The notes beneath the pieces are model-generated. The model saw only the letters and a list, made by a program, of their open reading frames with translations. It was not told the origin of the DNA and searched no databases. Of a DNA stretch of 64,000 nucleotides, positions 32,243 to 62,906 are shown piece after piece. Source of the DNA: a virus (lineage: Duplodnaviria; Heunggongvirae; Uroviricota; Caudoviricetes); the IMG/VR virus record IMGVR_UViG_3300008114_000011; one strand, 5' to 3'. Position 1 is the stretch's first letter; every line of letters starts with the position of its first letter. Made by a program: the position numbers and the translations under genes.

Positions 32243-32565
32243 GAGTGGTAACTGAAAGCCCAGAGAACTGGGTTATATTAAAAATTGACGGTGTTGATGG
32301 TGTTTACTATCGAGTTTTCGGTGGTTGGCGTGGTGGTTATGCCGGCAGTGATCGTTGGAAGATGAACTCTGGTATTGTTAAGGTGGAATCTGATAGTGAT
32401 TACTATTACTTTATAGGAGCTAGTGGTAGTTGTTATAAATGTCACAAGGAGAGTTATGCTGGTTTCAGTGGTTGGGTTTATGGAGTTTTGTCTAAGATAA
32501 TGGATGGAAGTCCGGTTCCTATTGAGGTTTTAGATGAAATGAATTTTGAGGAGTTAGGTATTTAA
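32239..32565 (+). CDS. hypothetical protein with short ELGI end
   Basis: 108 aa; C-term DEMNFEELGI. Confidence 0.55.
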   Translation: MRVVTESPENWVILKIDGVDGVYYRVFGGWRGGYAGSDRWKMNSGIVKVESDSDYYYFIGASGSCYKCHKESYAGFSGWVYGVLSKIMDGSPVPIEVLDEMNFEELGI

Positions 32566-32604
32566 TTTATTATACGGAATTTGTAAATTAAAAAAGATAT
32601 TAGG

Positions 32605-32865
32605 ATGAAAGATGGGATGGTTCAGTGTGTATCAAATGGTTGTGGTTATTACAAGAGTTTGAAGGTTGGTAAGTGGTATAAATTTAGAGAGGTATCTGAT
32701 TTAGTGGTCCCACCTCGGCTCGAAGGTCAATATTTAATTTACTTTGATGATTATGTTTCTGGACCAAAGGGTTCTCAAATGCTCAGATGTTCTTATCCAA
32801 AGAAATTATTTAGAACGGTTTCTGATAGAAGAGATTTTAAACTTAAAAAGATCGGTGTAATATAA
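32605..32865 (+). CDS. ELGI-tail family small protein (variant)
   Basis: 86 aa; C-term SDRRDFKLKKIGVI. Confidence 0.55.
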   Translation: MKDGMVQCVSNGCGYYKSLKVGKWYKFREVSDLVVPPRLEGQYLIYFDDYVSGPKGSQMLRCSYPKKLFRTVSDRRDFKLKKIGVI

Positions 32866-33172: not shown

Positions 33173-33889
33173 ATGAGAAATAATTTAGTAGAGATATTTC
33201 ACGATACTCAAATCAAGTCCGTGAAGTTTAATGATGGTGTTACAACACAACATTCAAATAATGAGATAGTTGGACCTTATTTATCAGTTTATAAAGGTAA
33301 TGTTAAGGTCGTTAATTTAGATACGGTATCTGCTCTTGTAGAGTTATCTAAGTCTGGTAAAACTTGTGGCTTGAATATGGCTTCGTATAAGAAACCGGGT
33401 GGTGGAGTTCGTAATGGAGCCAGAGCTCAAGAAGAATGTTTATTTAGATGTTCTAACTTAATCAATTCAATTGTAGAAGATTTTTATCCATTAGAAGATG
33501 GTACTTGTCTTTATACATCAGATGCTACATTCTTTAAAGATAAGGATTATAATGATATGGAACCGGTTGAGTGTGATATTATTACGATAGCTGCTATAAA
33601 CTTAAACAGTCGTAGTTATGATAAAGAGACTTATGAAGAGATTACACTCCAAAAGATAAGATTGATGCTTACTATCCCATCTAAACATGGTGTTGAGAAC
33701 TTGGTTTTGGGAGCTTTTGGTTGTGGTGTTTTTGGGAATGATCCCCATGTGATGTCAGAATTATTTAGAAAGGTTTTAGTTGAAGAAGGTTATTCATCTT
33801 TATATAAAGAGGTTGTTTTTGCTGTTATAAACGATCATAATTCTGTTGGTAATAATTATAGTGTGTTTTCTGATAAATTCTACTCTTAA
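33173..33889 (+). CDS. macrodomain protein, microbial PARG-like (TIGR02452/DUF2263-type)
   Basis: LNMASYKKPGGGVRNGARAQEECLFRCSNL and LVLGAFGCGVFGNDP signature blocks. Confidence 0.7.
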   Translation: MRNNLVEIFHDTQIKSVKFNDGVTTQHSNNEIVGPYLSVYKGNVKVVNLDTVSALVELSKSGKTCGLNMASYKKPGGGVRNGARAQEECLFRCSNLINSIVEDFYPLEDGTCLYTSDATFFKDKDYNDMEPVECDIITIAAINLNSRSYDKETYEEITLQKIRLMLTIPSKHGVENLVLGAFGCGVFGNDPHVMSELFRKVLVEEGYSSLYKEVVFAVINDHNSVGNNYSVFSDKFYS

Positions 33890-44152: not shown

Positions 44153-44410
44153 ATGAAAGTTAAATGTATTTCCAATCAAAAGAGATGGGGTGGGTCAGTT
44201 AGTACCTACCCTTTAGTAGTTGGTAAAGTATATAATGTTATATCAACTGGTCACGTACCATTTGTTTCGAGAAGATATGATGATTATAGTGGACCTTTCT
44301 ATAAAGTCACTAATGAAGATGGTGTAGAGGGTAATTATAGTGATGATATTATGAGACCATTAAATAAGTCTGAAATGAGAGACGAATTGTTAAAAGAGTT
44401 GGGTATATGA
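44153..44410 (+). CDS. ELGI-tail family small protein (MKVICI subfamily)
   Basis: MKVKCISNQ...SEMRDELLKELGI. Confidence 0.65.
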   Translation: MKVKCISNQKRWGGSVSTYPLVVGKVYNVISTGHVPFVSRRYDDYSGPFYKVTNEDGVEGNYSDDIMRPLNKSEMRDELLKELGI

Positions 44411-44625
44411 TTGGAATTATTTGGGTTTGTGTTGACAATACTGCTAATGAACATAGACTAACTGTTGGTAAAAAATATACCGAGATTTTAAATAAATTTG
44501 CTGATCTTGATTGTATTTTAATAAAAGATGATAATGGTATGATATCAGAGGTTTATCAACCTGGTTTCTTTATTAAAATTGATGAATGGAGAGATAGTCA
44601 GTTAAGAAAAATTGGAATAAAATGA
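44407..44625 (+). CDS. ELGI-tail family small protein
   Basis: 72 aa; C-term DEWRDSQLRKIGIK. Confidence 0.65.
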   Translation: MIGIIWVCVDNTANEHRLTVGKKYTEILNKFADLDCILIKDDNGMISEVYQPGFFIKIDEWRDSQLRKIGIK

Positions 44626-44858
44626 TAAAAGTAATTTGTATAAATGAACCAGATATTTCTTATACAAGAAATAAAAAGTTAGAATTGAATAAACAATACA
44701 ACGCTAAAACCAATGAGGTTTCTTTAGGTTTTTCATATGGTATTGTTTATATGTATAAGATATTTGATGGTAATAACTATCTTGGTGAGTATTATAGACG
44801 TGATTTTCTCACTGTTGAAGAATATCGTGATAAAAAATTAGAATCAATTTTAGACTAA
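44622..44858 (+). CDS. ELGI-tail family small protein (MKVICI subfamily)
   Basis: MIKVICINEPD...EEYRDKKLESILD. Confidence 0.65.
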   Translation: MIKVICINEPDISYTRNKKLELNKQYNAKTNEVSLGFSYGIVYMYKIFDGNNYLGEYYRRDFLTVEEYRDKKLESILD

Positions 44859-45163
44859 TGAAATTCTTCACTGATTATAAAAATTTAAAATGTAACTATG
44901 AACAATTTGAGTTCATAAAACCTTATCTTTATGCTGATGGTTGGGATTGGTATAATGGTGATATATTCTTGTATGACGAATCAAATGAAAATATTGATGA
45001 TTATCTTGATGATTTAGTTATGATACAACCACATTATAAATATGAAGAAGATAAAAATCATAAATTCTTTATTCCTTATTATGAAGATGAAATTGAATAC
45101 TTAAAATTTGAAAAAGATGTTAAAGAAATAATCAGAGAAATTAAATTAAATGAATTATTATGA
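44858..45163 (+). CDS. ELGI-tail family protein
   Basis: 101 aa; C-term IIREIKLNELL. Confidence 0.6.
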   Translation: MKFFTDYKNLKCNYEQFEFIKPYLYADGWDWYNGDIFLYDESNENIDDYLDDLVMIQPHYKYEEDKNHKFFIPYYEDEIEYLKFEKDVKEIIREIKLNELL

Positions 45164-45411
45164 GCCCGTATAAAATATCTGGTGTAGAAAGGCGAAAACT
45201 CAAAAAAGAACTTTCTGAATTAAAATACTTTGTTAAAATGTTTTGGCACTTCGAAGATATAGATAGAGTTTATGGTGGTGGTTTAACAGACAAAGAATGT
45301 GATGATTTAATAGAAGAAAAGAATAAAGAAATAGAAAAGTTAGAAAGTTTATTAAATGAACCTTCTGATCAAATAGTTAGAGATTTTAAATTAAATGAAT
45401 TAGGTATATGA
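45160..45411 (+). CDS. ELGI-tail family small protein
   Basis: 83 aa; C-term QIVRDFKLNELGI. Confidence 0.6.
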   Translation: MSPYKISGVERRKLKKELSELKYFVKMFWHFEDIDRVYGGGLTDKECDDLIEEKNKEIEKLESLLNEPSDQIVRDFKLNELGI

Positions 45412-46004
45412 TAGTTTTAGTATTGTTATTGATAGCATCACAAGTTTTTCTATTTGTGAAATATTCAGAGTTATTAAAAGTAAAGAAAGAAAGTGAAGAG
45501 GTTATTGAAAAGTATAAAGATGTTAAGATAGTTGCTAATATACCTGAAGAGCCTCAATATGAAGATATCGAACCTGATTATAAAACATTTTATAATTTTA
45601 TGGAGAACATAAAGTTAGAAAACTGGAAGGTAAAGATTGATGATGATTATTGTACGGATACTTATTCATATTGGACGGTTTTGATTGAGTCACATGATGG
45701 TGAATATTGTATGTATATTTCATTAAATTGTTACGATGGTAAACAAGTTGAATTTTCAACTTGTCGAATTGGTAGAACACAATTAGGTGTCGGTAATACA
45801 GAACATCATCTATACATAAAAAGTACAACAAAACACCAAATTAAGAAAGATGTTACTATATTTGCATGGGATTATATTATCAAATATTATGAAGATAAAA
45901 ATCAGAAAATATTTGATAAAATAAAAGATAATATTGATGTTATCAATAAGAGTATGAAAACATTAAATCGTAGTAATAGATTGGATGGTATTTTAAAATT
46001 TTAA
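45408..46004 (+). CDS. membrane-anchored protein with degenerate tail
   Basis: N-term MIVLVLLLIASQVFLFV; C-term LNRSNRLDGILKF. Confidence 0.55.
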   Translation: MIVLVLLLIASQVFLFVKYSELLKVKKESEEVIEKYKDVKIVANIPEEPQYEDIEPDYKTFYNFMENIKLENWKVKIDDDYCTDTYSYWTVLIESHDGEYCMYISLNCYDGKQVEFSTCRIGRTQLGVGNTEHHLYIKSTTKHQIKKDVTIFAWDYIIKYYEDKNQKIFDKIKDNIDVINKSMKTLNRSNRLDGILKF

Positions 46005-46006
46005 TT

Positions 46007-46366
46007 ATGAATATTAAAATAGGAGAACGAGAATACAAAACCATGGATATGCTTGGGAAAGCATCAGAATTAAAAAAAGCCGGAACTGTTGTACTTCATC
46101 TTTATGATTGTGTTGAAGATGATTTAAATTACTTAAAATCATTTCCGGAAATTGATAAAATGGTGTGTATGAAAAGACATTACACTTGGGTATTCTTGAA
46201 TTGTGAGATTCAGACTTTACATTTCGCTCCTGCGAGATGGAGTTATAATCATGAACACAAAGATTTAATTGTTACTTTTAAATTCAAAGATATAGTTGGC
46301 TCACATAGTGATGAATTGGTAAAAGGTAAAATCAGAGATAAAAAATTAAAAGAATTATTAAAATAA
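46007..46366 (+). CDS. ELGI-tail family protein
   Basis: 119 aa; C-term GKIRDKKLKELLK. Confidence 0.6.
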   Translation: MNIKIGEREYKTMDMLGKASELKKAGTVVLHLYDCVEDDLNYLKSFPEIDKMVCMKRHYTWVFLNCEIQTLHFAPARWSYNHEHKDLIVTFKFKDIVGSHSDELVKGKIRDKKLKELLK

Positions 46367-46404
46367 TTTCCCGTCTGAGGGAGTAAGTTTTTTATATATA
46401 GATA

Positions 46405-47193
46405 ATGGGAAAACATTATTTATATAAACATATAAGAAATGATAGTAATATCATTTTCTATATTGGTATAGGGACAAAAAATAAATCTGATATAACTTAT
46501 AATAAGTATAGTAGGGCTTTTAATAAAAAAAGGAGAAATAAACATTGGTTAAATACAGTTTCTTTATTGAATGATGATTATTCAATTGAGATAGTATGTG
46601 AGACCGATGATTATGAATATGTGAAAAGTCTAGAAAAAAATCTGATTTTATTTTATGGTAGAAAGGATCTAGGTTTAGGTAATTTAGTAAATATGACAGA
46701 TGGTGGTGATGGTCAAATAAAAAGAGTTTGGAGTGAAGAGTCTAGGAAGAAGGCATCTAAATCACACATTGGTAAAGTAATTGATGGTGAGTGGAAGAAA
46801 AATTTAATAAAAGCTAGATTTGGAAATAAATCACATTCTGGTCGAACTTTTTCAGATGAACATAGAAAAAAAATATCAGAAGCAGGTAAGGGAAAAATAC
46901 CTTGGAATAAGAATAGAGAATTATCCAATGATGAGATTGAAAAAATAAAAAAGGGTATAGAAGAAAATAAAAAAATTTGTTATATTTGTAATGTTGAGTG
47001 TGACTCTGCTAATTATAATAGATGGCATGGTGATAAATGTGAGATGGGATCTATTTTAGATAGGGTTGATGAGATAAAGGATTTATTGTATAATAAAGTT
47101 CCTTTACTTAGGATTAGTAGAGTTTTAGGAATAAAGTATAAATTATTGAGAAGATTAAAAGAGTCAGTTTTATTTAAAGAAGAATTATTATGA
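46405..47193 (+). CDS. GIY-YIG homing endonuclease with NUMOD3-like repeats
   Basis: HYLYKHIRNDSNIIFYIGIGT (GIY...YIG); repeats SEESRKKASKSHIGK and SDEHRKKISEAGKGK. Confidence 0.75.
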   Translation: MGKHYLYKHIRNDSNIIFYIGIGTKNKSDITYNKYSRAFNKKRRNKHWLNTVSLLNDDYSIEIVCETDDYEYVKSLEKNLILFYGRKDLGLGNLVNMTDGGDGQIKRVWSEESRKKASKSHIGKVIDGEWKKNLIKARFGNKSHSGRTFSDEHRKKISEAGKGKIPWNKNRELSNDEIEKIKKGIEENKKICYICNVECDSANYNRWHGDKCEMGSILDRVDEIKDLLYNKVPLLRISRVLGIKYKLLRRLKESVLFKEELL

Positions 47194-47963
47194 AATATTT
47201 AAAAAAGAAATATCCGGATGGTAGCTTTTATGTTGAAGTAGAGGATTTTAGTGAACCTATAATAACCGAAAGAATAAATTCATATGAGGACCTTTTTTTC
47301 ATAAAATCCATCAAAGAGGTTTGTGATTTTAATGGAATTAAAGATGTTGAGTTATTTATACCATGTATGTTTCAACAGCAACATGACCGTAGATTTTTTG
47401 ATAATCAATCATTTGAACTAAAGATAGTTTGTGACTTTATCAACTCATGTAATTTTAGTAAAGTTTATGTTTTCCATCCACATTCTGATTCCACTCAAAT
47501 GGGATTGAATAATATTAGAGTTGTTGATAATTCTAAATTTATATCAAGTGTTTTAAGTAGAATTGATTCTAATCCAATATTATTTTCAACAGATGCTGGT
47601 TCATTTAAATGGATAAATAAATTAGTTGATAAAATAGGATTTAATGGTGATGTTTATTGTGCTAGTAAGTCTAGAGATTTAAAAACACATGATTTGAAGC
47701 AAGTTATTGATTGTTCTGATTTTGGTGGTAGAGATATATTAGTATTGGATGATTTATGTGTAAAGGGTGGTACATTTATAGGTCTATTGAATATGTTAAA
47801 GGAGAGAAATGTTGGTAAGATATACTTAGCAGTTAGTCATATGACTATTCAAGATCCAAATACAAGTCTTGAGTGTTATGATAAGATATTTACTACTAAT
47901 AGTAAGTATGACTATTATGTTCTAAATAATTTAGAATTGATTGATTATAAAAGTATTATATAA
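47190..47963 (+). CDS. prs: ribose-phosphate pyrophosphokinase (PRPP synthetase)-like protein
   Basis: LFIPCMFQQQHDRRF resembles the Prs xPYxxYxRQDR block; PRPP-binding loop DILVLDDLCVKGGTF. Confidence 0.6.
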   Translation: MKYLKKKYPDGSFYVEVEDFSEPIITERINSYEDLFFIKSIKEVCDFNGIKDVELFIPCMFQQQHDRRFFDNQSFELKIVCDFINSCNFSKVYVFHPHSDSTQMGLNNIRVVDNSKFISSVLSRIDSNPILFSTDAGSFKWINKLVDKIGFNGDVYCASKSRDLKTHDLKQVIDCSDFGGRDILVLDDLCVKGGTFIGLLNMLKERNVGKIYLAVSHMTIQDPNTSLECYDKIFTTNSKYDYYVLNNLELIDYKSII

Positions 47964-47968
47964 AAGAT

Positions 47969-48826
47969 ATGAAAAACTTTAAAATAGGAGGTGTTCCCGA
48001 ACACTTCAACTTACCTTGGCGTTTAGCCATTGAAGAAGGAAGATTAAATGATTTAGATGTAAATCTACACTGGTCTGATATGACTGGTGGTACTGGTCAA
48101 ATGATTAAAGGTTTACAAGCAGGTTCAATTGACATCGCAGTTCTTCTTACTGAAGGAATTACAAAAGCAATTTTAGATGGTTTGGATGCCAAAATATTAA
48201 CAGTTTATGTTAAAAGTCCATTACGATGGGGTATTCACGTACCTTTTAATTCAGAAATGAAAACTTCTGATGATATCAAAGGTAAAACATTTGCTATCTC
48301 AAGAGAAGGTTCTGGTTCACACTTAATGGCTTATGTAAACTCATTTCAAAGAGGTTGGAATACCGATGATTTAAAGTTTGAAGTTGTTGGTGATGTTTAT
48401 GGTGGTTTATGGGCTTTAGAGAATGGGCAGTCTGATGTTTTCTTATGGGAAAAGTTTACAACTTATCCATTTGTTAAAGCAGAGAAATGTAAATGTATCG
48501 GTGAAGTTGTAACACCTTGGCCCTGTTTCGTAGTTGCTGTTAGAAACGAGATCTATGAACAACACAAAGATTTGTTAAGAGAAGTTATGAAAGTCGTTGG
48601 TGGTGTCGCAAATGAGATTAAAAACCCATCATTACATGATTTCTATTCAAATGAAATTTCTTGGAGATATAACTTAGAAAAAGATCAAGCTTCTACTTGG
48701 TTGAATGAAGTAGAATGGAACTACACTGGTGATAATGATGTTAATGATTATGAATTAGTAGTTGATTATCTACAAAAAATATCTCTTATTGAAGAAAATA
48801 AAGACTGGAAATCTAAATTATTTTAG
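47969..48826 (+). CDS. NMT1/THI5-like periplasmic-binding-fold protein (tentative)
   Basis: N-term KIGGVPEHFNLPW recalled as typical of the NMT1/THI5-like family; assignment from memory only. Confidence 0.4.
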   Translation: MKNFKIGGVPEHFNLPWRLAIEEGRLNDLDVNLHWSDMTGGTGQMIKGLQAGSIDIAVLLTEGITKAILDGLDAKILTVYVKSPLRWGIHVPFNSEMKTSDDIKGKTFAISREGSGSHLMAYVNSFQRGWNTDDLKFEVVGDVYGGLWALENGQSDVFLWEKFTTYPFVKAEKCKCIGEVVTPWPCFVVAVRNEIYEQHKDLLREVMKVVGGVANEIKNPSLHDFYSNEISWRYNLEKDQASTWLNEVEWNYTGDNDVNDYELVVDYLQKISLIEENKDWKSKLF

Positions 48827-48871
48827 AGGTAATAGGTTCTTATATATATAAGTATAAAAGAAGTGATACTT

Positions 48872-49846
48872 ATGTTAGAAGAATTTATAAAAAAATCGAT
48901 AGTTAAATTTGGTAATAAATTTGATTATAGTAAGTTTAATTATGTGAATGCTAAAACTAAATCTATAATCATATGCCCAGTACATAAAGATTTTTTTCAA
49001 ACACCTGATAAGCATTTACGTTCAAAATATGGATGTAAATTATGTTGGGAAATTGAAAAAAAGAAAATAAAAAGAGATTATGTAAAGGGTCCAAATATCA
49101 TTTCAAAAGATGAGTTCTTGGGTAGATGTTATGAGAAGTTTGGTGATAAATTCAAATACGATTTATCAAACTACAATGGGTTTGTTGGTGATTATATAAA
49201 AATAACTTGTTCAGAACATGGTGATTTTTATACAAAACCGAATATACATTTATTAAGTAATAACACCTATGGGTGTAAATTATGTGCTAATGATAATAGA
49301 GTACTCAATAAAACACAAACCTATGATGATGTTATAGAAAAATTATCAAATATTTATAATGATAAATATATTTATCCTGAATATAATAGAGATACTTATA
49401 TTAACAAGAGGTCGAAAATAGATATAATTTGTCCGGATCATGGGCTATTTGTTAAGAGTGTTCAAAAACACCAAAGCGGTCAATATTGTTTTGAGTGTAA
49501 AATTAAGAATATGGTTTTTAATAATATTTTAGTTGGTGGTTACACTGAGAAATTATTTGAAGATAAACCAGAATTAAAGGATAAAAAATCTAAATTATAT
49601 TATTTGAGAATAAATAATGGTGATTATTATAAAATAGGAATAACAACAGTTTCGGTTGAAAGTAGAATAAAGTCATTGAAGAGTAAATCTAAAGGTTTTA
49701 TAAAAGATGTTGAGATTTTATTTGAAAAGGAAATGTCTTTATATGAATCATATATCATGGAGAGTAAAATATTAAATGATAATATAGATAGTAGAGTTTA
49801 TAAAAAATGGAGTACTGAAATTTTCAACAAAAATGTTTTGGAATAA
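48872..49846 (+). CDS. homing-endonuclease-like protein (repeated Cys modules plus T5orf172/GIY-YIG-like C-terminal domain)
   Basis: Three repeats of FG.KF.Y....Y......I.C..HG.F......HL....GC..C; C-term LYYLRINNGDYYKIGITTVSVESRIKSLKS. Confidence 0.55.
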   Translation: MLEEFIKKSIVKFGNKFDYSKFNYVNAKTKSIIICPVHKDFFQTPDKHLRSKYGCKLCWEIEKKKIKRDYVKGPNIISKDEFLGRCYEKFGDKFKYDLSNYNGFVGDYIKITCSEHGDFYTKPNIHLLSNNTYGCKLCANDNRVLNKTQTYDDVIEKLSNIYNDKYIYPEYNRDTYINKRSKIDIICPDHGLFVKSVQKHQSGQYCFECKIKNMVFNNILVGGYTEKLFEDKPELKDKKSKLYYLRINNGDYYKIGITTVSVESRIKSLKSKSKGFIKDVEILFEKEMSLYESYIMESKILNDNIDSRVYKKWSTEIFNKNVLE

Positions 49847-49881
49847 TAGAATAATTATTATCTTTATAAAAAATAAAAACT

Positions 49882-51462
49882 ATGAACTTTTTAGAAATTT
49901 ATTATACCGATGTGTATAAAACAGGACACAAACCAATGCTACCAGTGGGTAGTGTTTTGATGCAATCAAATTTTACACCAAGGAGTGGTAAATATAGCAA
50001 TTGTCCAAATAATGGTAAAATTGTTTCGTTTGGTCAACAAATGATGGTGAGAAAAATGAAACAAGATTGGGATGTTAACTTTTTTCAAAGACCAATTGAA
50101 GAAATCGATCAATTTGGGAAGGATTTAACAGATATGTTAATGCTGAGTGATCCTTTTGATGTTACTCACTTCAAAGAACTACATAAATTGGGATATCTTC
50201 CGATTGAGTTTAGAGCAATCACTGAAGGTGAGAGAATTCCGTATAAAATACCATTATCGACTATCGTTAATACTAAACCTTTAAATGGTCAAGTTTTTGA
50301 CTGGATAGTTAATTACTTAGAAACTATTAATTCTGCTGAATCTTGGCAAGCACCAACTTCAGCGACGCTATCATTCGCATTAAGAGAGTTATCAACAAAG
50401 TGGATCACAAAAACAGATCCGGAGAGTTTGTGGTTTGTTGACTATCAAAATCATGATTTCTCAATGAGAGGTATGGGTGGTAAATCAGCTATTGTTAATA
50501 GTGGTTTAGGATTTGCTACTTGTTCGAGAGGTTCAGATACACTACCTGTTATACCAGCTGCTAGAATGTATTATGATGAAAAAGATGTTTGTATCAACTC
50601 TGTTATCGCATCTGAACATGCTATTATGTGTTCATTGACTGGATTTTTCATTAAGACTAAAGATGGTTCTTGGGATAAGGTTGGTAACTTTGAAGTTGAG
50701 ACATTTAGGTATTTATTAAGAACTTTTCCAACTGGAATATTGTCATTAGTATCTGATACTTGGGATTTATGGAGAGTTATTACGGAGTACTGTCAAATAT
50801 TAAAAGATGAAATTTTAGCAAGAGATGGCAAACTTGTTATCCGTCCTGACTCTGGTGATCCAGTAGATATTATTTGTGGTAGCATAACTCCAGATATGTC
50901 TTCTTATAATGAAAGATACAAACAACCTCAATATAAAGGTGTTATCGAGTTATTATGGGATATCTTTGGTGGTACTGAAACATCAACCGGATATAAAAAA
51001 TTAGACTCACACATTGGTGCTATCTATGGTGACTCTATTAACTATAAGAGAGCTGAGAGTATTTATGAAAGATTATCAGCTAAAGGATTTGCAACAACAA
51101 ACATCGTTCTCGGTGTGGGATCCTATTCACTTCAGATGGTAACACGCGATACACATGGTATGGCTCAAAAAGCAACCTACATCGAAATTGAAGTTGATGG
51201 TGATGTTGAAGGTATCAACATCTTTAAAGACCCTATCACTGATGATGGTACTAAAAAATCAGCAACTGGATTACTAAAAGTAGTTAAAGTTGATGGTGAG
51301 TTTACATTAATTGATAAATGTACTTGGGATGATGTTAACTCGGAAGATAATGAGCTGAAAGTTATCTTCAAAGATGGTAAGTTCTATAACGAAACGACTT
51401 TGACCATCATACGTGGGAAGTTAGAGGATCTTGTTTCTAAAGAACAACCTGAATTAGTTTAA
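49882..51462 (+). CDS. nadV: nicotinamide phosphoribosyltransferase (NAMPT/NadV)
   Basis: 526 aa; N-term YYTDVYKTGHKPM; length and blocks SDTWDLW, IRPDSGDP, GAIYGDSI fit NAMPT. Confidence 0.8.
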   Translation: MNFLEIYYTDVYKTGHKPMLPVGSVLMQSNFTPRSGKYSNCPNNGKIVSFGQQMMVRKMKQDWDVNFFQRPIEEIDQFGKDLTDMLMLSDPFDVTHFKELHKLGYLPIEFRAITEGERIPYKIPLSTIVNTKPLNGQVFDWIVNYLETINSAESWQAPTSATLSFALRELSTKWITKTDPESLWFVDYQNHDFSMRGMGGKSAIVNSGLGFATCSRGSDTLPVIPAARMYYDEKDVCINSVIASEHAIMCSLTGFFIKTKDGSWDKVGNFEVETFRYLLRTFPTGILSLVSDTWDLWRVITEYCQILKDEILARDGKLVIRPDSGDPVDIICGSITPDMSSYNERYKQPQYKGVIELLWDIFGGTETSTGYKKLDSHIGAIYGDSINYKRAESIYERLSAKGFATTNIVLGVGSYSLQMVTRDTHGMAQKATYIEIEVDGDVEGINIFKDPITDDGTKKSATGLLKVVKVDGEFTLIDKCTWDDVNSEDNELKVIFKDGKFYNETTLTIIRGKLEDLVSKEQPELV

Positions 51463-51514
51463 TTTAAACAAGGCACCAAACTTGTAAACTAATTTCTTTA
51501 TTCACTCGTTAAAA

Positions 51515-51536
51515 AACCCACTCAATTGAGTGGGTT
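51515..51536. terminator. bidirectional terminator between convergent genes
   Basis: AAAAAA-CCCACTCAA/TTGAGTGGG-TTTTTT perfect palindrome. Confidence 0.8.
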
Positions 51537-51548
51537 TTTTGTTTATAG

Positions 51549-51947: not shown

Positions 51948-53663
51948 TTATGTACAATCTGGACAATCAATTCTACCATCACCATCACATCGATTACACC
52001 AAATTCTACCTTCACCATCACAATCACCACACTCTCTGGTACCATCACCACCACATCTATCACATTCGTTAGTACAGTCACCCTCACATTCAGAACAATC
52101 TTGTTTACCTGATCCACTACAATAAGAACACTCATTTCCCTCATCATCTTCTCCAGTTCCATCACAACTAGAACAGTCTTCTTTTCCAGTTCCTTCGCAG
52201 TTATCACAAGGTAGAGTACCGTGTCCATCACAATTAGAACATTCTACTTCACCAGAGGCACCACATTCTTCACAATCATATCTTCCATCACCCTCACATT
52301 CATAGCAATCAATTCTTTCATCACCACCACATCTTTCACATTCTTCTCCATTACCACCATCAGTTTCTCTTAGTTCGTAATAGTTACTATTTATTACTAA
52401 TTTTTGCTCATTTGTTAAGAATCCATAATCCCATTCATAATAACAAAGAGTATCTAAATAAGGGTATTTACTAAAGCCGTTCATTTCTAAATCAACTTTA
52501 ATTGTTCCGATGTTTGAATCAGAACCATTAAACATAAACTCTTCCTCTGAAATATTTTGATTTTTCTTATAAACATATCCCATTTTAATTGCGTATTTAA
52601 TAAACAATTCTTGGTCTGGTGAATTACTCACATAAATTCTATCCATAAATGGTTTTCCTTCTGATTCGGTATGTTTTACTAAATTATATTTCGTTATTAC
52701 TCCTTCATCATCACCACCATCCCATGGCATATATTCTGGTTTTTTCCAAAGAAGAGCTCTACCTATAATTTTAGTTGGATCTTCTTTAGATTTTAATATA
52801 ACTAATCCAACACTTTTAGGATTTTTAGAATATATGTTTAAGTAGTCTTGACATCTAGCATGTCTCATACAAGATGCTCCTAAAGTATGATTACCACCTC
52901 GATAATAATTACCTTCATAATAAAACTTTTTAATATCATCACCTTCAACCAATTCAAAATCAGAGAATATATTTTCTTTTTTAGCTTTAGTGGCAATTGA
53001 AAACTTAGTTACAAAATCTTCAACTTCAGTTCCTTTAACTTCTTTACCAGCTTTCTTCAATAGTGATTGAACGAATGATCCAACTCTAACTTCTTGTGAG
53101 GAAACCGCTCCCTCACCAATTTTAAGACCATAATCTTCAATGATAAGATCAATATTCTCACCACTTCTATTAAATCTTATATGATAAATTTTACGTCCTT
53201 GATCAAGATACCATTTTAATCTATTTTTTACATCCTCATCATTAAAATCATCAATACTTGTTATCTGTTTAGTAATAGTAGCTTTTTGGTTTCTTTGAAG
53301 TAATTCATACCAATTCAAAAAACCTTTTTCGACTCTTGGATCTTCAAATAATTTAGCAAATGATGTAAATATTTCTTTTGATAAGATAGACAATGATGCG
53401 CCAAAATCAATTATAACACAAGAGTTTTTAGACTTTTTATCGGATTTAAATTGTATAAAGTTGTCTTTATCATCAGAAATATCAATAAAGTTTGTATCAA
53501 CATCAACGTCAACACCCTCTAAATCTAAAATCTCTTTTGAAAGTGGACTATTAACCGACTTCAAAATTTCTTTGAAATCATCTTTATAAACCATATTACC
53601 TTCAAGTAGTAAATTGAGTTTACTCTCGTTTAGGAAACTATCATATCTTAAAATATTACTCAT
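51948..53663 (-). CDS. large protein with about 12 tandem CxxCxGxG (DnaJ-type zinc-finger-like) repeats at the C-terminus
   Basis: C-term CERCGGD..CYECEGDG..CEECGASG..CSNCDGHG..CDNCEGTG..CSSCDGTG..CSYCSGSG..CDRCGGDG..CGDCDGEG..CNRCDGDG..CPDC. N-terminal domain paralogous to 61155..62276. Confidence 0.75.
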   Translation of the reverse strand: MSNILRYDSFLNESKLNLLLEGNMVYKDDFKEILKSVNSPLSKEILDLEGVDVDVDTNFIDISDDKDNFIQFKSDKKSKNSCVIIDFGASLSILSKEIFTSFAKLFEDPRVEKGFLNWYELLQRNQKATITKQITSIDDFNDEDVKNRLKWYLDQGRKIYHIRFNRSGENIDLIIEDYGLKIGEGAVSSQEVRVGSFVQSLLKKAGKEVKGTEVEDFVTKFSIATKAKKENIFSDFELVEGDDIKKFYYEGNYYRGGNHTLGASCMRHARCQDYLNIYSKNPKSVGLVILKSKEDPTKIIGRALLWKKPEYMPWDGGDDEGVITKYNLVKHTESEGKPFMDRIYVSNSPDQELFIKYAIKMGYVYKKNQNISEEEFMFNGSDSNIGTIKVDLEMNGFSKYPYLDTLCYYEWDYGFLTNEQKLVINSNYYELRETDGGNGEECERCGGDERIDCYECEGDGRYDCEECGASGEVECSNCDGHGTLPCDNCEGTGKEDCSSCDGTGEDDEGNECSYCSGSGKQDCSECEGDCTNECDRCGGDGTRECGDCDGEGRIWCNRCDGDGRIDCPDCT

Positions 53664-53753: not shown

Positions 53754-54587
53754 ATGGAAAAGGGATATATTTATAAAATAATTTCACCAACTAACAGGAT
53801 TTATATTGGTAAAACTTTTAATTTGGAAAAGAGAGTAAGATCTTATAAAGGTTTATGGTGTAAAAAACAAAGAGTTTTGTATAAATCATTAGTTAAATAT
53901 GGTTGGGATAAACATAGTTTTGAGATACTATTTGAAGATTTTTGTAGTGAGGAATATTTATCTGAGTTGGAGACAAAGTATATAATTGAATATAATAGTT
54001 TTCGAAGATACAACTATAAATTTGGAATGAATTTAACTCTTGGTGGTGAAGGATCTTGTGGATTAAAACATACGGATAAAACTAAAAAAATGATATCCGA
54101 AACTAAGAAAAAGGCTAAAAGAACGGAGAAAGAGATTTTAGCAAGTGAAAAAAGAAGAGGGACTAAGGTTTATAAAAGTGAAGAGTGGATTAAAAATAAC
54201 GCAGAGAGTATAAAAAAACCAATATTGCAATATGATTTGGATGGTAATTTTATCAAAGAATGGAAAAGTGCTAAAGATATTGAATTGGAATTGGGATTTT
54301 CTAGGAAAAACATTTCCTGTAATGTTAGATATAAAAGTAATAGTGCATTTAACTTTATATGGATTTTTAAAAATGCCGATCTTAAAATAGATGATATTCT
54401 AATAAGGAGAAAAAGAGAAAGAAAAAAACCAACTAATAGTATTAAGGTTTTAGATATTGAATGTAATATTGTCTATGATAGTATAATGGATGTAGTTAAA
54501 AATACTAACATGACATATGCTAAAGTTTATCGAGTTATATACAGTAATGATGAGAATAAAAAGTATATTATATATGAAGAGAAATAA
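53754..54587 (+). CDS. GIY-YIG homing endonuclease
   Basis: GYIYKIISPTNRIYIGKTFNLEKRVRSY; NUMOD-like HTDKTKKMISETKKKA. Confidence 0.8.
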   Translation: MEKGYIYKIISPTNRIYIGKTFNLEKRVRSYKGLWCKKQRVLYKSLVKYGWDKHSFEILFEDFCSEEYLSELETKYIIEYNSFRRYNYKFGMNLTLGGEGSCGLKHTDKTKKMISETKKKAKRTEKEILASEKRRGTKVYKSEEWIKNNAESIKKPILQYDLDGNFIKEWKSAKDIELELGFSRKNISCNVRYKSNSAFNFIWIFKNADLKIDDILIRRKRERKKPTNSIKVLDIECNIVYDSIMDVVKNTNMTYAKVYRVIYSNDENKKYIIYEEK

Positions 54588-56024: not shown

Positions 56025-57749
56025 ATGAAAAGAATATTATTTTTACTAACACTATTATTATCATTTAGTTCATTAGCAACTAATTATTATATTAGTTCAA
56101 CCGGAAACAATACAAACAATGGAACATCATCTATTACACCAAAATTAACATTAGCAAACGTTTTCAGCACCTATAATTTAGGTTCTAATGATACTATTTT
56201 CGTTGAAGCAGGAACTTATTCTGAGACAGGTATTACTGTTGGTACTGATGATGAAGGTTTTGTAATTTCTGGTGCGGCTTTATCATCTGGTGTACCTACA
56301 TCTATTTTTGATGCAGGTAGTACCGCAAGATGGTTATTGTTAAATAACACAAATAATGATAATATCACAATCACTAAATTAATTATAAAGGATCATAAAA
56401 ATTCTGATGGAGGTGATCCAGGAGGTGGTGGAGCAATTAAAATAATTGCTGGATGTACAGGATTTAAAGCAACTTATTGTCAGTTTGATAATTGTGATAC
56501 AAGAACTGCCTCTTTACATCACCGAGGTGGTGTTATTTATTCTGCTGAGGGAATAACCATCGATTATTGTACTTTCAAAAATTGTAATGCTGAATATTAT
56601 GGTGGTGCTATTTCAATAGAATTATCACCAACATCATCATCATCAATAAAACATTCAATTTTTTATTCAAATACCGCTACTAATTACGGAGGTGCTATAT
56701 TCTTTGGTGTTGGATCTACCTCTACTCTAACATTAGAAAACTGTTTATTTTATGAAAATAATACATCATCAGGAGAGGCTGTTATTGTTGCTATGAATAC
56801 ATATAGTACATTAAATATTATGAACTGTACTATAACTGCTAATGGTAATGCTTCTGTTGGAACTGGAGGTGTTTTGGCTTTATCATCAGCTAAAATAAAT
56901 TTAATAAATACAATTATTTATAATAATTTAGGTAATACTTTCAATGATGTTTATAATAATGCCGCTACCGTTAACATGACAAATTGTTGTTATGGAAATT
57001 CAGCTGAGATAAAATCAGCTACATCAAATACATCACCGTTAATATCAAATCCACTATTCACAAATAGTGCTAGTGATGATTATACACTTTCTGGTACATC
57101 ACCTTGTATAGATTGGGGAACAACAACCGGAGCACCAACTGATGATTTGAGACATTATAGTCGTATTGGTAATCCAGATGTTGGATGTTATGAATCAAAT
57201 GGTATTGCTTTACCAATTGAGTTGATTTACTTTAAAGTTAAATTTGAAGATGGTGTTGTTAAATTAAGATGGTCAACAGCATCAGAACACAATAATGATT
57301 ATTTCACAATTGAAAAGTCAAAAGATGGTTTAGATTATGATATAGTTACAACTCTACCAGGTGCTGGTAATTCAACTCAAAGAATAAACTATCAAGCAAT
57401 TGATCGAAATATTGAAACTGGAATAACTTACTATCGATTAAAACAAACTGATTATAATGGTGATTATAAAAGAACAGATTGGGAGTCTATATTAATTCAA
57501 TTAAATATTGAGAACTTAACGGTTTATCCAAATCCAATTACAAATGAAATAAATGTTTCTTTACATTCATCTTTTAGTAAGGTTGAAGACTTATTGATAT
57601 ATGATTTAACCGGTAAACAATTTTATAAAAAATCATTAGATTTACAATTAGGTGATAATTATTTTGATGTAGAGTTACCACAACTTTCTAAAGGTCTTTA
57701 CATACTACAAATAGGTGATAAGAAACTTAAACTTGAATATAATGATTAA
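56025..57749 (+). CDS. secreted beta-helix-like protein with T9SS C-terminal sorting domain
   Basis: Signal peptide MKRILFLLTLLLSFSSLA. Repetitive G/N/T-rich segments (GGAI.I, YGGAIS, YGGAIFF). C-term LTVYPNPITNEINVSL...DLTGKQFYKKSL...LSKGLYILQIGDKKLKLEY is typical of the Por/T9SS CTD. Confidence 0.75.
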   Translation: MKRILFLLTLLLSFSSLATNYYISSTGNNTNNGTSSITPKLTLANVFSTYNLGSNDTIFVEAGTYSETGITVGTDDEGFVISGAALSSGVPTSIFDAGSTARWLLLNNTNNDNITITKLIIKDHKNSDGGDPGGGGAIKIIAGCTGFKATYCQFDNCDTRTASLHHRGGVIYSAEGITIDYCTFKNCNAEYYGGAISIELSPTSSSSIKHSIFYSNTATNYGGAIFFGVGSTSTLTLENCLFYENNTSSGEAVIVAMNTYSTLNIMNCTITANGNASVGTGGVLALSSAKINLINTIIYNNLGNTFNDVYNNAATVNMTNCCYGNSAEIKSATSNTSPLISNPLFTNSASDDYTLSGTSPCIDWGTTTGAPTDDLRHYSRIGNPDVGCYESNGIALPIELIYFKVKFEDGVVKLRWSTASEHNNDYFTIEKSKDGLDYDIVTTLPGAGNSTQRINYQAIDRNIETGITYYRLKQTDYNGDYKRTDWESILIQLNIENLTVYPNPITNEINVSLHSSFSKVEDLLIYDLTGKQFYKKSLDLQLGDNYFDVELPQLSKGLYILQIGDKKLKLEYND

Positions 57750-58499: not shown

Positions 58500-59033
58500 A
58501 TGAGAAAACCCTTTAAGAGAGTAGAACCAAAAAGAAAACACAAAATTAATTTAGAAATAACATCAAGTGATGTTAGATTGATTGGTAATGGAGAACCAAT
58601 CGTTATTTCTAGAAATGAAGCTATTAGAATGGCTGAAGCAGAGGAAAAAGATTTGATTATGATTAATGAAAATCAAACTCCACCTATTGTTAGAATTGAG
58701 GACTACAACAAATTTCTTTATAATCAAGAAAAGATTGAGAAAGAGAAAAAGAAAAATGCTGTTAAATCCTCTTTAAAAGAAATACAATTATCGGTTAATA
58801 TATCAGATCATGATTTAGAAACTAAATCTAAAAAAGGTAGAGAGTTTTTAAGTGACGGTGATAAAGTAAAAGTTGTTATCTCTTTAAAAGGTAGAGAGAA
58901 AGCATCTCCAGAAAGAGGTGAGTTAGTTATGTTAAAATTTGCTCAATCCGTTGAAGAGTTTGGTACACCAGAGGCACTTCCTAAATTAGAATCCGGAAAG
59001 TGGTTAATGATTTTGAAATGTAAAAAGAAATAA
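58500..59033 (+). CDS. infC: translation initiation factor IF-3
   Basis: INLEITSSDVRLIGNGEPIVISRNEAIRMAEAEEKDLIMINENQTPPIVRIEDYNKFLY...KEIQLSVNISDHDLETKSKKGREFLSDGDKVKVVISLKGRE follows the two-domain IF-3 pattern. Confidence 0.85.
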   Translation: MRKPFKRVEPKRKHKINLEITSSDVRLIGNGEPIVISRNEAIRMAEAEEKDLIMINENQTPPIVRIEDYNKFLYNQEKIEKEKKKNAVKSSLKEIQLSVNISDHDLETKSKKGREFLSDGDKVKVVISLKGREKASPERGELVMLKFAQSVEEFGTPEALPKLESGKWLMILKCKKK

Positions 59034-62294: not shown

Positions 62295-62906
62295 TTATCT
62301 TTTAATTCTTTTAATAGCACCTTTTATAACAGATTTATGATCAAATGCCATATCAACAATAGTTTCACCACTATAACTAACATCAATCCAATCACATTCA
62401 TCAGCATCATCAGCCGCGGATGTTTCAGGTATATCACTTAAAATAACTGAGAAAGCATAAGAAATACAATTCTTATTTCTTGGATCTCTCCACGGTTCAT
62501 TGAATACATCAATAAATCTCAAATATCTTTTAGGTACTTTTAAACTTGTTTCTTCTTCCAACTCACGAATAGCAGCATCTATTGGTTCTTCACCTTCGTC
62601 AATGTTCCCACCAGGACAAGCCCACTTGCCTTTAAATGGATCTTTATTTCTTAGAATTGCCAACATCTTATAATTTGAGCCAGTATCAACTAAAATAACT
62701 AAATCGACACAAGACATACCCGTATCAACTATCATATCACCATTCAATCTAAAAACATATGTATAACCTTTCTTTATTTGATTTATAGAATTATTTACAA
62801 AATTTCCAGAAGTTGTATAAACTTTACGATCTTTTATATCTAGAACCTTAACAGGTCCAAACCAATCACTCGAATTAAATTGGTTATAAGTTTTAATTTT
62901 TAACAT
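62295..62906 (-). CDS. Nudix hydrolase with MKYLK-like head
   Basis: Nudix box GGNIDEGEEPIDAAIRELEEETSL; N-term MLKIKTYNQFNSS. Confidence 0.8.
   Translation of the reverse strand: MLKIKTYNQFNSSDWFGPVKVLDIKDRKVYTTSGNFVNNSINQIKKGYTYVFRLNGDMIVDTGMSCVDLVILVDTGSNYKMLAILRNKDPFKGKWACPGGNIDEGEEPIDAAIRELEEETSLKVPKRYLRFIDVFNEPWRDPRNKNCISYAFSVILSDIPETSAADDADECDWIDVSYSGETIVDMAFDHKSVIKGAIKRIKR

Follow-up and report, generated by a model that had tools for sequence, protein, structure and literature searches.

NARP1 (NAD+ reconstitution pathway 1) consists of Adps and Namat and converts ADP-ribose (ADPR) into ADPR-PP and then directly into NAD+; it worked without the host enzymes that use NMN (Osterman et al. 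2024, bioRxiv 10.1101/2024.02.11.579819), and structures of Namat are available (9W5X/9W5W; PMC12774641). Two extended forms have been described, the three-gene NARP1-AP operon with the order Adps-Adpp-Namat (bioRxiv 10.64898/2026.01.28.702374) and RyDEP+NARP1 (bioRxiv 10.64898/2026.05.28.727677), in which the accessories broaden the range of NAD+-derived inputs. Here we analysed 64,000 nucleotides of a phage genome (the window) and find that the locus at 46405-51462 is best read as the known system NARP1 in a three-gene form, invaded by two selfish endonuclease genes. The conserved third gene, which makes this a three-gene variant, was previously unreported with NARP1. Taken jointly, the assignment to NARP1 and the status of the third gene as a selected component of the module, whatever its specific ligand, are in our view quite probable.

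Organization of the locus

The five ORFs of the original prediction are all present on the plus strand, and the domain labels given to them agree with the profile matches. They encode, in this order, a homing endonuclease (46405-47193, 262 aa), the Prs-family enzyme Adps (47190-47963, 257 aa), a Ca3427-family protein (47969-48826, 285 aa), a second homing endonuclease (48863-49846, 327 aa) and the Nampt-like enzyme Namat (49882-51462, 526 aa). The second endonuclease ORF starts with GTG, and its first ATG, at 48872, is the start that had been proposed. The stop codon of the first endonuclease overlaps the start codon of Adps (ATGA), and only 5 nt separate the Adps stop from the start of the Ca3427-like gene. 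Terminator-like sites flank the five-gene set on both sides, the strong one being an intrinsic-terminator-like hairpin on the plus strand (51510..51541, 14-bp stem and T-run) at the 3' end of the unit. An identical layout was found on 19 contigs from several samples, and the whole of 46405-51462 would form a single transcription unit encoding NARP1. The hairpin on the left (46368..46383, plus strand) is weak, a consensus match only, with a 5-bp stem followed by a T-run; it lies 3' of the ORF 46007-46366 and may mark where the transcription unit is bounded on the left.

The two enzymes and the pathway

The protein encoded at 47190 is best read as Adps (ADP-ribose pyrophosphate synthetase), the enzyme with which NARP1 begins; its sequence is of the megaphage/jumbo-phage type. 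It matches Pribosyltran/Prs-like profiles and phrog_619 (6e-43, 148 bits) and fails the bacterial Prs cutoffs, with 68 bits against TIGR01251 for a cutoff of 113. As in validated Adps, a segment of ~28 aa found at the N terminus of Prs is missing, and so is one of ~20 aa at the C terminus. In our trees, which are neighbour-joining trees of few sequences without bootstrap support, it groups with the Adps of FADO and SPbetaL1, apart from the Prs of E. coli and Crocinitomicaceae, and its K160 aligns with the catalytic K162 of SPbetaL1. Searching with this protein by tblastn gave matches in 1,322 phage records, FADO among them; it is 68-70% identical to the Adps of compact Adps-Namat operons, in which the gaps are 2-10 nt, and only 26-27% identical to validated Adps. 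We infer its specificity for ADPR from clade membership and gene adjacency, because the residues selecting ADPR versus ribose-5-phosphate are not defined in the source papers.

The product of 49882-51462 is likewise best read as Namat (nicotinamide ADP-ribose transferase), the second NARP1 enzyme. It matches the NAPRTase family (2.4e-28) and phrog_448 (1.7e-156), and phmmer against the PDB retrieved 9W5X/9W5W, the crystal sequence of SPbetaL1 Namat, with 372 bits (4e-110), versus 154 and 128 bits for the true Nampt of Xcc and human NAMPT. The residues of the catalytic core are all conserved, and D13, Y15, F189, R192, D215, R306 and D308 (SPbetaL1 numbering) are kept without exception. The clamp motif is GSYSLQMVTRD; Prs-adjacent homologs read GS[FY][ST]xQ[YFM]xTRD, and the protein groups with all of them in the neighbour-joining tree and the motif table, whereas the NMNAT-adjacent NadVs, whose motif is GGALLQ[QK]L[ND]RD, are the outgroup of the tree. 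The latter come from the bacterial NadV and NMNAT/Nudix pairs of Ralstonia and Methylosinus, used here as NARP2 controls. Position 7 of the clamp is Met, against an aromatic residue in the published signature and Phe in the closest relative (L224), and the long SCL loop shares with FADO a K in place of R40.

With canonical NARP1 the locus shares an Adps-clade Prs-family enzyme with the catalytic Lys and a Namat-clade enzyme whose core is conserved, as is most of its adenine clamp; the two genes have a strand and a unit in common, in a phage genome with no NMNAT in the window. It differs in that the two genes, adjacent in the canonical pair, are split by the third gene and a homing endonuclease, in the Met of its Namat clamp, in an SCL loop that is the longest of those compared, and in a short Adps (257 aa) of a type otherwise found on contigs of 200-620 kb. 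By homology to the validated enzymes, Adps would use ATP to pyrophosphorylate ADP-ribose, which would be supplied as the product of SIR2/TIR/SEFIR-type NADase defences, and Namat would join nicotinamide and the resulting ADPR-PP directly into NAD+, making NMNAT unnecessary.

The original prediction of an NAD+-restoring counter-defence module is supported by these results, but its pathway, in which a PRPP synthetase and a NAMPT led to NMN with the NMNAT step missing, has to be replaced, the enzymes grouping in the Adps and Namat clades. It had rightly stated that no NMNAT is recognisable: in the window, NMNAT motifs occur in no ORF of at least 60 aa. Since NARP1 needs no NMNAT, there is no missing step in the pathway, and neither the third protein nor the N-terminal extension of the Nudix hydrolase at 62295-62906 is required to supply one, as had been suggested; this extension counts ~70 aa, and the bifunctional NMNAT/Nudix models match by their Nudix half only. 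The parallel drawn with the KVP40-type NadV and NMNAT (NARP2) concerns a different system, as the NMNAT-adjacent NadVs differ in motif and fall outside the clade of the window protein. NARP2 and the window have in common a Nampt-superfamily enzyme raising NAD+ with nicotinamide and an ADPR-pyrophosphatase-type Nudix, present elsewhere in the window. In contrast to NARP2, the window contains no NMNAT, its transferase bears the motif of Namat in place of that of NadV and is partnered by a Prs-like enzyme instead of NMNAT, and the Nudix, which has no NMNAT domain, is encoded apart from the operon, 11 kb away and on the other strand.

A classical salvage, in which the enzyme encoded at 47190 would produce PRPP, that encoded at 49882 would form NMN from nicotinamide, and NMNAT would come from the host or from the phage outside the window, appears very unlikely to us. 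Its attraction lies in the Pfam/NCBIfam names of the two proteins (Prs-like and NAPRTase/NAMPT-like), in the Met at clamp position 7, in some PRPP-dependent NMN synthesis kept in vitro by SPbetaL1 Namat, and in the scope of the NMNAT search, which covers the 64 kb of the window, whereas the genome measures at least 172 kb. Yet the first protein scores far under every Prs model cutoff and shares the shortened ends of validated Adps; the second belongs to the Prs-adjacent (Namat) clade and not to that of the NMNAT-adjacent NadVs, and combines the clamp residues S2/Y3/T9 with a long SCL loop. In a published survey, moreover, Namat was a neighbour for 97% of Adps-clade genes and rarely for bacterial prs.

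The third gene

The product of 47969-48826 is a cytoplasmic protein with the Ca3427-family type-2 binding-protein (Venus-flytrap) fold: it matches PBP2_Ca3427_like at 3e-13 and NMT1 weakly (0.002), and no signal peptide was found in it. Candida albicans Ca3427 (PDB 2X7P/2X7Q), the founding member of PF22384, resisted co-crystallisation trials (PMC3073944); no ligand has been reported for any member of the family, and neither the Ca3427 paper nor the literature searched links it to NAD+, ADP-ribose or phage-host conflict. Unlike the Candida protein, the window copy is phage-encoded and lies within an NAD+ reconstitution operon. It has no PHROG family and no homologs in 50,697 isolated phages, and other phage groups have two-gene NARP1 operons that lack the gene. 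Among uncultured phages, 8 of the 9 lineages sampled carry it between Adps and Namat, and in 7 of the 8 linked to NARP1 it stands directly 5' of Namat (20-92 nt). Adps is present in 25 of 28 phage-type loci, Namat in 24 and an ABC gene in none, while an adjacent ABC exporter is present in 77 of 80 bacterial loci and Namat in none; in bacteria, the linkage of the homologs is with an ABCB-type exporter and not with NAD genes. The phage copies fall into a single clade within sequences of the Crocinitomicaceae type, and the gene would have been acquired long ago from a host of the Crocinitomicaceae/Flavobacteriales clade. Its dN/dS of 0.11-0.25 indicates purifying selection.

Comparison with an L008-type phage bears on the history of the operon. 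The backbone genes of the two phages are 70-97% identical and the Ca3427-like proteins 76%, but the identity falls to 31% for Adps and 48% for Namat, which indicates, at the level of sequence, that distant xenologs of megaphage type took the place of the enzymes on either side and that the third gene stayed where it was. The un-swapped state, free of homing endonuclease genes, is represented by L141, whose Ca3427-like protein is 93% identical to the window copy.

Like NARP1-AP and RyDEP+NARP1, the window operon adds an accessory gene to NARP1, and in Vibrio phage Gary the accessory also sits between Adps and Namat. Whereas those accessories are a Poa1p-like Macro phosphatase and a RyR-domain glycosidase, the one in the window has a Ca3427-type binding-protein fold and no evident catalytic activity, and adjoins Namat rather than feeding Adps. 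By analogy, we tentatively suggest that its role may be small-molecule binding in support of NARP1. Its ligand would be a small metabolite of anionic or heteroaromatic nature (nicotinamide or a derivative of ADP-ribose), which the protein would keep for Namat or pass on to it, in a functional parallel to the add-ons Adpp and RyDEP, which supply the pathway with substrate.

Two other explanations have to be weighed against support of NARP1. The protein could act in counter-defence on its own, as a sponge for an ADPR-derived or other immune signal or as a host-protein mimic disturbing the ABC-exporter/Ca3427 pair, its location in the operon resulting merely from the clustering of anti-defence genes. 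The Venus-flytrap fold fits ligand sequestration, and in one phage lineage (P0004) the gene, with no NARP1 next to it, is found three genes downstream of the Thoeris inhibitor Tad3 (97.7 bits). The phage-clade substitutions K124N and R/K213T do away with positive charges that the bacterial copies have; situated outside the E11/H12/E161/T164 columns, they could reflect a lost interface with a host partner. The gene also tolerated replacement of both its neighbours by xenologs of 31-48% identity, so the protein would need no co-adapted partner. We nevertheless judge this explanation unlikely, considering that the gene directly precedes Namat in most of the lineages linked to NARP1 and that the predicted binding-site cluster is the same as in the housekeeping bacterial proteins, which points to the ancestral ligand rather than a new immune signal.

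It is also doubtful that we are dealing with an unrelated auxiliary metabolic gene of host origin, persisting in a recombination-tolerant interval without a role in NAD+ conflicts. The interval between Adps and Namat does carry other cargo: L001 has a DNA methylase there, L008, L011, L094 and L096 have small ORFs, and the window phage has homing endonuclease genes. The bacterial homologs, moreover, are housekeeping genes without a NAD link. These other inserts, however, vary by lineage, whereas the Ca3427-like gene is unchanged in position and orientation, shows purifying selection and outlasted the replacement of both flanking genes. Its constancy in 8 of 9 lineages and its absence from isolated phages and from two-gene operons therefore make the association with NARP1 lineage-wide, not random.

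Homing endonucleases and neighbouring genes

The seg and mob genes of T4 are the paradigm of free-standing homing endonucleases in large phages. In the window, the first endonuclease (46405-47193) matches NUMOD3 (9.7e-8), phrog_314 'homing endonuclease' (7.5e-16), phrog_655 and phrog_19446; it is assigned to GIY-YIG by an N-terminal YLY-x10-YIG motif only, the Pfam GIY-YIG model giving no match at E<=0.01. The second (48863-49846) just reaches the T5orf172 cutoff with 20.0 bits, has a match of 3e-40 to phrog_681 'endonuclease', and combines DUF723-like N-terminal repeats with a T5orf172/MUG113-type C-terminal nuclease. Both had been placed between pathway genes, which is correct for the second, located between the Ca3427-like gene and Namat, and not for the first, located upstream of Adps. 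The proposed invasion of the locus is borne out by versions of the operon without these genes in L141, L223 and L224, and the gap that the second endonuclease fills is 20-92 nt long and ORF-free in relatives. The first endonuclease and Adps form a block (46278-47933) that is 83% nucleotide-identical in L220 with diverging flanks; on this alignment, the endonuclease travels as a block with Adps. Each endonuclease adjoins a core gene replaced by a megaphage-type distant xenolog. As in the T4 type, these are intergenic, same-strand ORFs of the GIY-YIG superfamily, polymorphic in presence among related genomes and lying beside mosaic, replaced flanking genes; unlike it, their homing is predicted from sequence, and the GIY-YIG domain of the first is recognisable by motif only.

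Two further genes lie outside the operon, as originally predicted. The Nudix gene (62295..62906) is on the minus strand, and its product (2e-17), an ADPR-pyrophosphatase/NtrR-like hydrolase, has its best matches in NtrR and the Nudix half of NadM-Nudix models. The TIGR02452-type macrodomain (33173..33889, plus strand) scores 130 bits for a cutoff of 50 and matches PARG_cat_microb at 1e-20, with an intact GGG-x7-QEE signature of the bacterial PARG type. It is the sole macrodomain of the window and, unlike Adpp in NARP1-AP, is of the PARG type (PF10021), lies 13 kb away from the operon and does not belong to the Macro families PF14519, PF01661 and PF20016 that define Adpp; it may be another ADP-ribose-related counter-defence gene.

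Pathway assignment of the five-gene locus

The locus comprises five genes on the plus strand: the NUMOD3 homing endonuclease HEG1 (46405-47193), the Prs-like phosphoribosyltransferase-fold protein Adps (47190-47963), a PBP2_Ca3427_like/NMT1-like protein (47969-48826), the T5orf172-type endonuclease HEG2 (48863-49846) and the NAPRTase/NAMPT-family protein Namat (49882-51462). The ORF listing placed them where the original prediction had, and its domain labels were reproduced by Pfam, NCBIfam and PHROG scans. According to a scan for terminator-like hairpins, Adps and Namat, with two genes in between and all on one strand, belong to one unit bracketed by terminators, a weak one 5' of the first gene and one with a 14-bp stem 3' of the last. 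The G+C content of the window is 25-34% throughout, and a sigma-70 promoter scan was uninformative in this 27% GC DNA (45 sites versus 39 expected). Several samples yielded metagenomic contigs with the identical five-gene layout, 19 in all, and the longest one listed measures 171.8 kb; in isolated phages, a megablast search with the entire locus gave no match.

In NARP1, Adps pyrophosphorylates ADP-ribose (ADPR) to ADPR-PP, which Namat couples with nicotinamide to form NAD+, and the pathway is functional in an E. coli strain without NMN-using enzymes (bioRxiv 10.1101/2024.02.11.579819). A Prs-like gene beside a NAMPT-like gene, in the absence of NMNAT, is the signature of this pathway. Judging from sequence, the 47190 product is predicted to convert ADPR and ATP into ADPR-PP, the 49882 product to join ADPR-PP and nicotinamide into NAD+, and the unit to confer protection from NAD+-depleting defences. 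The earlier interpretation as a NAD+ counter-defence module was borne out, both enzymes falling in the NARP1 groups; the PRPP/NMN salvage chemistry attached to it was wrong, since they group with Adps and Namat and not with Prs and NadV. That no NMNAT is recognisable holds for the window, the motifs GxFxPxHxGH and ISSTxxR being present in no ORF of at least 60 aa within these 64 kb of a genome of at least 172 kb. This absence is not a gap, because NARP1 requires no NMNAT, and the idea of a missing step was mistaken. The best-supported reading of the locus is NARP1 plus an accessory gene; the core system is already known, and the novelty lies in a third gene that is conserved and Ca3427-like, and in the exchange of enzymes around it.

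In an alignment and a neighbour-joining tree built without bootstrap, the 47190 protein groups with the Adps of FADO and SPbetaL1, from which validated enzymes are known, apart from the Prs of E. coli and six Prs of Crocinitomicaceae; its identity is 26-27% with Adps, compared with 17-19% with Prs. It scores 68 bits against the Prs subfamily model TIGR01251 (cutoff 113) and 148 bits against phrog_619. The active-site lysine of SPbetaL1 Adps, K162, whose K162A mutant is inactive, is kept as K160 in the window protein and aligns with K168 of FADO and K194 of E. coli Prs. The N- and C-terminal segments of Prs are absent, as they are from all Adps. We also considered that HEG1 insertion had truncated the gene (257 aa, compared with about 293 aa in relatives) and rejected this, since all Adps, validated ones included, start just before the FPDG motif without the Prs N-terminus, and since relatives of the two-gene type are 255-256 aa long.

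For Namat, the crystal sequences of SPbetaL1 Namat (9W5X/9W5W) match the 49882 protein at 4e-110 and 372 bits, compared with 154 bits for Xanthomonas Nampt and 128 bits for human NAMPT. All seven catalytic-core residues (D13, Y15, F189, R192, D215, R306 and D308, SPbetaL1 numbering) are identical. At the position of the published Namat clamp signature (PMC12774641), the window protein reads GSYSLQMVTRD, with S2, Y3, T9, R10 and D11 Namat-like; its sole deviation from the published aromatic is Met at position 7, which is Phe in the 70%-identical Namat of locus L224. The SCL loop is long, and at the R40 position it has Lys, like the FADO Namat, which is validated; NMNAT-adjacent NadVs have a short SCL loop and the clamp sequence GGALLQ[QK]L[ND]RD. 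Homologs on plasmids served as natural controls: at about 30% identity to the window Namat they adjoin NMNAT/Nudix genes (Ralstonia, Methylosinus), and, among those 38-46% identical, the two with neighbours examined adjoin a Prs-like gene (a B. thuringiensis plasmid and Persicobacter). In a joint alignment and neighbour-joining tree, the window Namat shares a group with the validated Namats of SPbetaL1 and FADO and with every homolog that adjoins a Prs-like gene; the outgroup consists of the NMNAT-adjacent NadVs.

The locus differs from NARP2, the NadV and NMNAT salvage route. The 49882 protein does not look like a NadV-type Nampt, which would use PRPP as preferred donor: it is placed apart from the NMNAT-adjacent NadVs, to which it is 30-31% identical, and its clamp motif, position 7 excepted, and its loop are of the Namat type. 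Nor was a phage NMNAT of NadM/NadR type, often fused to Nudix, found within the window. The predicted Nudix hydrolase is real and lies on the minus strand (62295-62906), and it matches only the Nudix half of bifunctional models, which gives no support to the proposal that its N-terminal extension supplies a missing step. It resembles most closely the ADPR-pyrophosphatase half of NadM-Nudix proteins and NtrR, a repressor responsive to ADPR; a Nudix that cleaves ADPR would draw on the same substrate as Adps.

The known NARP1 accessories are the Macro phosphatase Adpp (bioRxiv 10.64898/2026.01.28.702374), which Vibrio phage Gary encodes between its Adps and Namat, and RyDEP, a glycosidase (bioRxiv 10.64898/2026.05.28.727677), both of which supply linear ADPR to NARP1; the third gene of the window belongs to neither class. 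What defines the Adps-Adpp-Namat operon, NARP1-AP, is a phosphatase for ADPR-1''-phosphate with a Macro domain (PF14519, PF01661 or PF20016), encoded no more than two genes away from those of NARP1. The five genes of the operon here encode no Macro domain, since the only macrodomain of the window, of the PARG type (PF10021/TIGR02452), sits 13 kb upstream at 33173-33889. This gene, already noticed in the original prediction, is real and on the plus strand; it is of TIGR02452/bacterial PARG type with an intact GGG-x7-QEE signature (GGGVRNGARAQEE) and belongs to no PHROG family. It lies outside the operon and differs from the Adpp-type Macro; it could free ADP-ribose from ADP-ribosylated targets and relate to NAD+/ADPR conflicts.

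The Ca3427-like third gene and its distribution

We are confident that the 47969 protein is a member of the Ca3427 family: it scores 50.5 bits (3e-13) against PF22384 (PBP2_Ca3427_like; curated cutoff 27), and phmmer aligns it with 2x7p at 5e-27. It has a type-2 periplasmic-binding-protein fold superposable on Ca3427 and is devoid of a signal peptide. The inter-domain polar cluster of Ca3427 (E11, H12, E164, T167) corresponds to E11, H12, E161 and T164 of the window protein, which do not vary among the 28 phage and bacterial sequences aligned and are invariant or near-invariant in a set of 148. The paper describing the Ca3427 structure assigns the family no function (PMC3073944), and our literature search found neither a later function for Ca3427 nor any binding-protein accessory of NARP1. 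Ligands of the next-nearest structures are sulfonates, the thiamin pyrimidine FAMP, thiamin, PQQ or nitrate; among these structures is an ABC transporter's cytoplasmic regulatory domain.

Homologs are found by the thousands in metagenomes. None was detected by tblastn against 50,697 isolated phage genomes, a PHROG scan returned no family, and a scan of viral_contigs gave nothing with the single protein and one locus, L007, with an alignment. A metagenome search with the pattern GSGSHLMAYVN, meant to be phage-specific, was unspecific outside the Crocinitomicaceae-type subfamily: it retrieved 120 loci, mostly distant bacterial homologs of 40-50% identity, of which 6 were informative.

The closest bacterial copies (51-65% identity) come from Crocinitomicaceae, Fluviicola, Lishizhenia and other Flavobacteriales, and look like housekeeping genes. 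Their sole constant partner is a generic ABCB-type exporter, immediately upstream in 76 of the 79 closest loci, and Namat is nearby in none. The exporter/Ca3427-like pair of these Crocinitomicaceae and Flavobacteriales (L014-L093) is flanked divergently by upp in 27 of 79 loci and by prs in 26 of 79; both handle PRPP, which could be chance or could point to the native ligand of the family, and, as a clue to function, the presence of one or the other divergently upstream in about two-thirds of the bacterial loci was judged too weak.

Copies from phages make up a single clade within the bacterial sequences, and dN/dS between them is 0.11-0.25. Among 28 phage-type loci, Adps is present in 25, Namat in 24 and the ABC gene in none. 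All sampled phage branches but one show the order Adps, variable inserts, Ca3427-like gene and Namat. After Adps, L001 carries a DNA methylase, L008 two small ORFs, L011 and L094 one ORF each, and L096 four ORFs, whereas L141 has no insert. In L007, a separate IMG/VR lineage (57% identity), the gene is likewise placed between Adps and Namat. The one branch that departs from this order is the P0004 lineage, which has no Adps within 13 kb upstream of the gene and no adjoining Namat, and in which the gene is found three genes downstream of Tad3, a Thoeris inhibitor. Locus L098 4784-7864 (JGI Ga0304730_1001222) carries, in this order, Endonuclease_NS, Tad3, a 2OG-Fe(II) oxygenase, two small ORFs and the Ca3427-like gene with no adjacent NARP1, and constitutes a candidate anti-defence cluster.

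Replacement of the core enzymes and possible role of the third gene

The window phage is related to the L008-type phage, with which it shares synteny: identity is 70-97% for flanking proteins (96.8% for Band_7, 91.9% for IF3) and 76% for the Ca3427-like protein, compared with 31% for Adps and 48% for Namat. The window enzymes match instead the compact two-gene Adps-Namat operons carried by 211-kb and 624-kb contigs, with identities of 68-70% for Adps and, for Namat, 50-65% by tblastn and 55% and 70% by alignment. Locus L141 is the un-swapped state: a homolog of the window's upstream ORF, an L008-type Adps, the Ca3427-like gene and an L008-type Namat follow one another directly, both endonucleases being absent. 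Its Ca3427-like protein is 93% identical to that of the window (91% at the nucleotide level), the nucleotide match being limited to the ORF and 22 nt. From this sharp block we had first concluded that the gene was imported as a cassette, and reversed this view because of the backbone synteny, in which the flanks and the Ca3427-like gene are L008-like and Adps and Namat foreign. These sequence comparisons indicate that both core enzymes were replaced by xenologs and the third gene retained. Within the window Namat, the 3' third (50800-51464) and the C-terminal tail (…NETTLTIIRGKLEDLVSKEQPELV) resemble the L008/L096-type Namat and the remainder matches the L224 type, which suggests a recombination junction inside the gene.

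Of the endonucleases, HEG1 is placed directly upstream of the foreign Adps and HEG2 directly upstream of the mostly foreign Namat. HEG1 matches NUMOD3 and phrog_314/655/19446, the GIY-YIG Pfam model falling short of E<=0.01; HEG2 matches phrog_681/559, with a T5orf172 score at its cutoff. HEG1 and Adps together (46278-47933) form a block 83% identical in nucleotides to locus L220, the flanks and other genes being far more divergent, a pattern that fits endonuclease-associated co-conversion. The proposed invasion of the module by endonucleases is supported by its HEG-free relatives, L141 and also L223 and L224, where Adps adjoins Namat. No paralogs of the two HEGs were found within the window. 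The locus offers a clear case, in nature, of anti-defence genes replaced by xenologs in association with homing endonucleases, and HEG-free and un-swapped relatives exist for comparison.

What the third gene does can be argued from its fold and its position. The Ca3427 fold makes the protein most likely a small-molecule binder, and tight adjacency to Namat favours the supply or retention of nicotinamide or an ADPR derivative, a role that we consider possible and short of probable. A more specific proposal, which on our own estimate is rather unlikely, makes the protein a true third NARP1 component in phages of Crocinitomicaceae and related Flavobacteriales: a cytoplasmic Venus-flytrap capturing nicotinamide or a non-canonical NAD+ breakdown product for Namat. 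Retention of the gene through the exchange of both enzymes argues for selection in that position, and also suggests that it does not depend on a co-adapted partner. The protein may instead be a stand-alone sponge or mimic, a reading to be set beside the P0004 lineage on one side and the recurrent position between Adps and Namat on the other. It may also be a hitchhiking host gene, and in that case the locus would be just another, ordinary NARP1 operon; survival of the gene through the exchange weighs on the other side.

NARP1 is a recently discovered and widespread phage means of undoing NAD+-depleting immunity, and Adpp and RyDEP reveal a bacteria-phage escalation over which NAD+ fragments get recycled. 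A third kind of accessory, with a binding-protein fold, borrowed from the host and kept through replacement of the core enzymes, would point to another layer of this arms race, for which substrate capture, nicotinamide retention and the handling of an unknown NAD+ derivative are possible roles. If the Ca3427-like protein is indeed a third component, NARP1 would be extended to conditions or defences beyond the reach of the two-enzyme pathway, and a family conserved from Bacteroidota to fungi, without a known ligand since its 2011 structure, would receive its first function. The gene would also offer an experimental handle on this orphan family.

Other genes of the window and its relatives

Just downstream of the NARP1 unit lies a third free-standing homing endonuclease (53754-54587, plus strand; GIY-YIG and NUMOD1, phrog_5123), not similar to HEG1 or HEG2. 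On the minus strand at 59137-61158, an intein that carries a LAGLIDADG domain splits a P-loop kinase-like gene inside the P-loop (GAPGIGK|C...); the same gene is uninterrupted in the relatives L011 and L095 (248 aa). In the endonuclease part of the intein, a TAA lies in frame at 60181-60183, with about 70 junk-like codons after it; this looks like a decaying intein or pseudogene, possibly a nested insertion.

An IF3 homolog (translation initiation factor; IF3_N and IF3_C) is encoded at 58500-59033 (plus strand), and a 574-aa protein at 56025-57749 (plus strand) carries Por_Secre_tail, the C-terminal sorting domain of type IX secretion, pointing to a host among the Bacteroidota. Two large minus-strand genes (51948-53663 and 61155-62276) form a paralog-like pair with an N-terminal region in common and long Cys-rich CxxC/GDG repeat ends, for which Pfam gave no match. 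Runs of small ORFs at 32239-32865 and 44153-46004 share alike C-terminal endings (…ELGI, …KIGIK, …LNELGI), which suggests a tandem paralog family ahead of the NARP1 unit. Finally, in L223 (8316-9470), the 211-kb contig with a two-gene operon of the window's Adps type, the gene directly after Namat encodes a NADAR domain (174 bits); next come a 70-aa ORF and a gene resembling nucleoside 2-deoxyribosyltransferase. These may be further NARP1-linked accessories.
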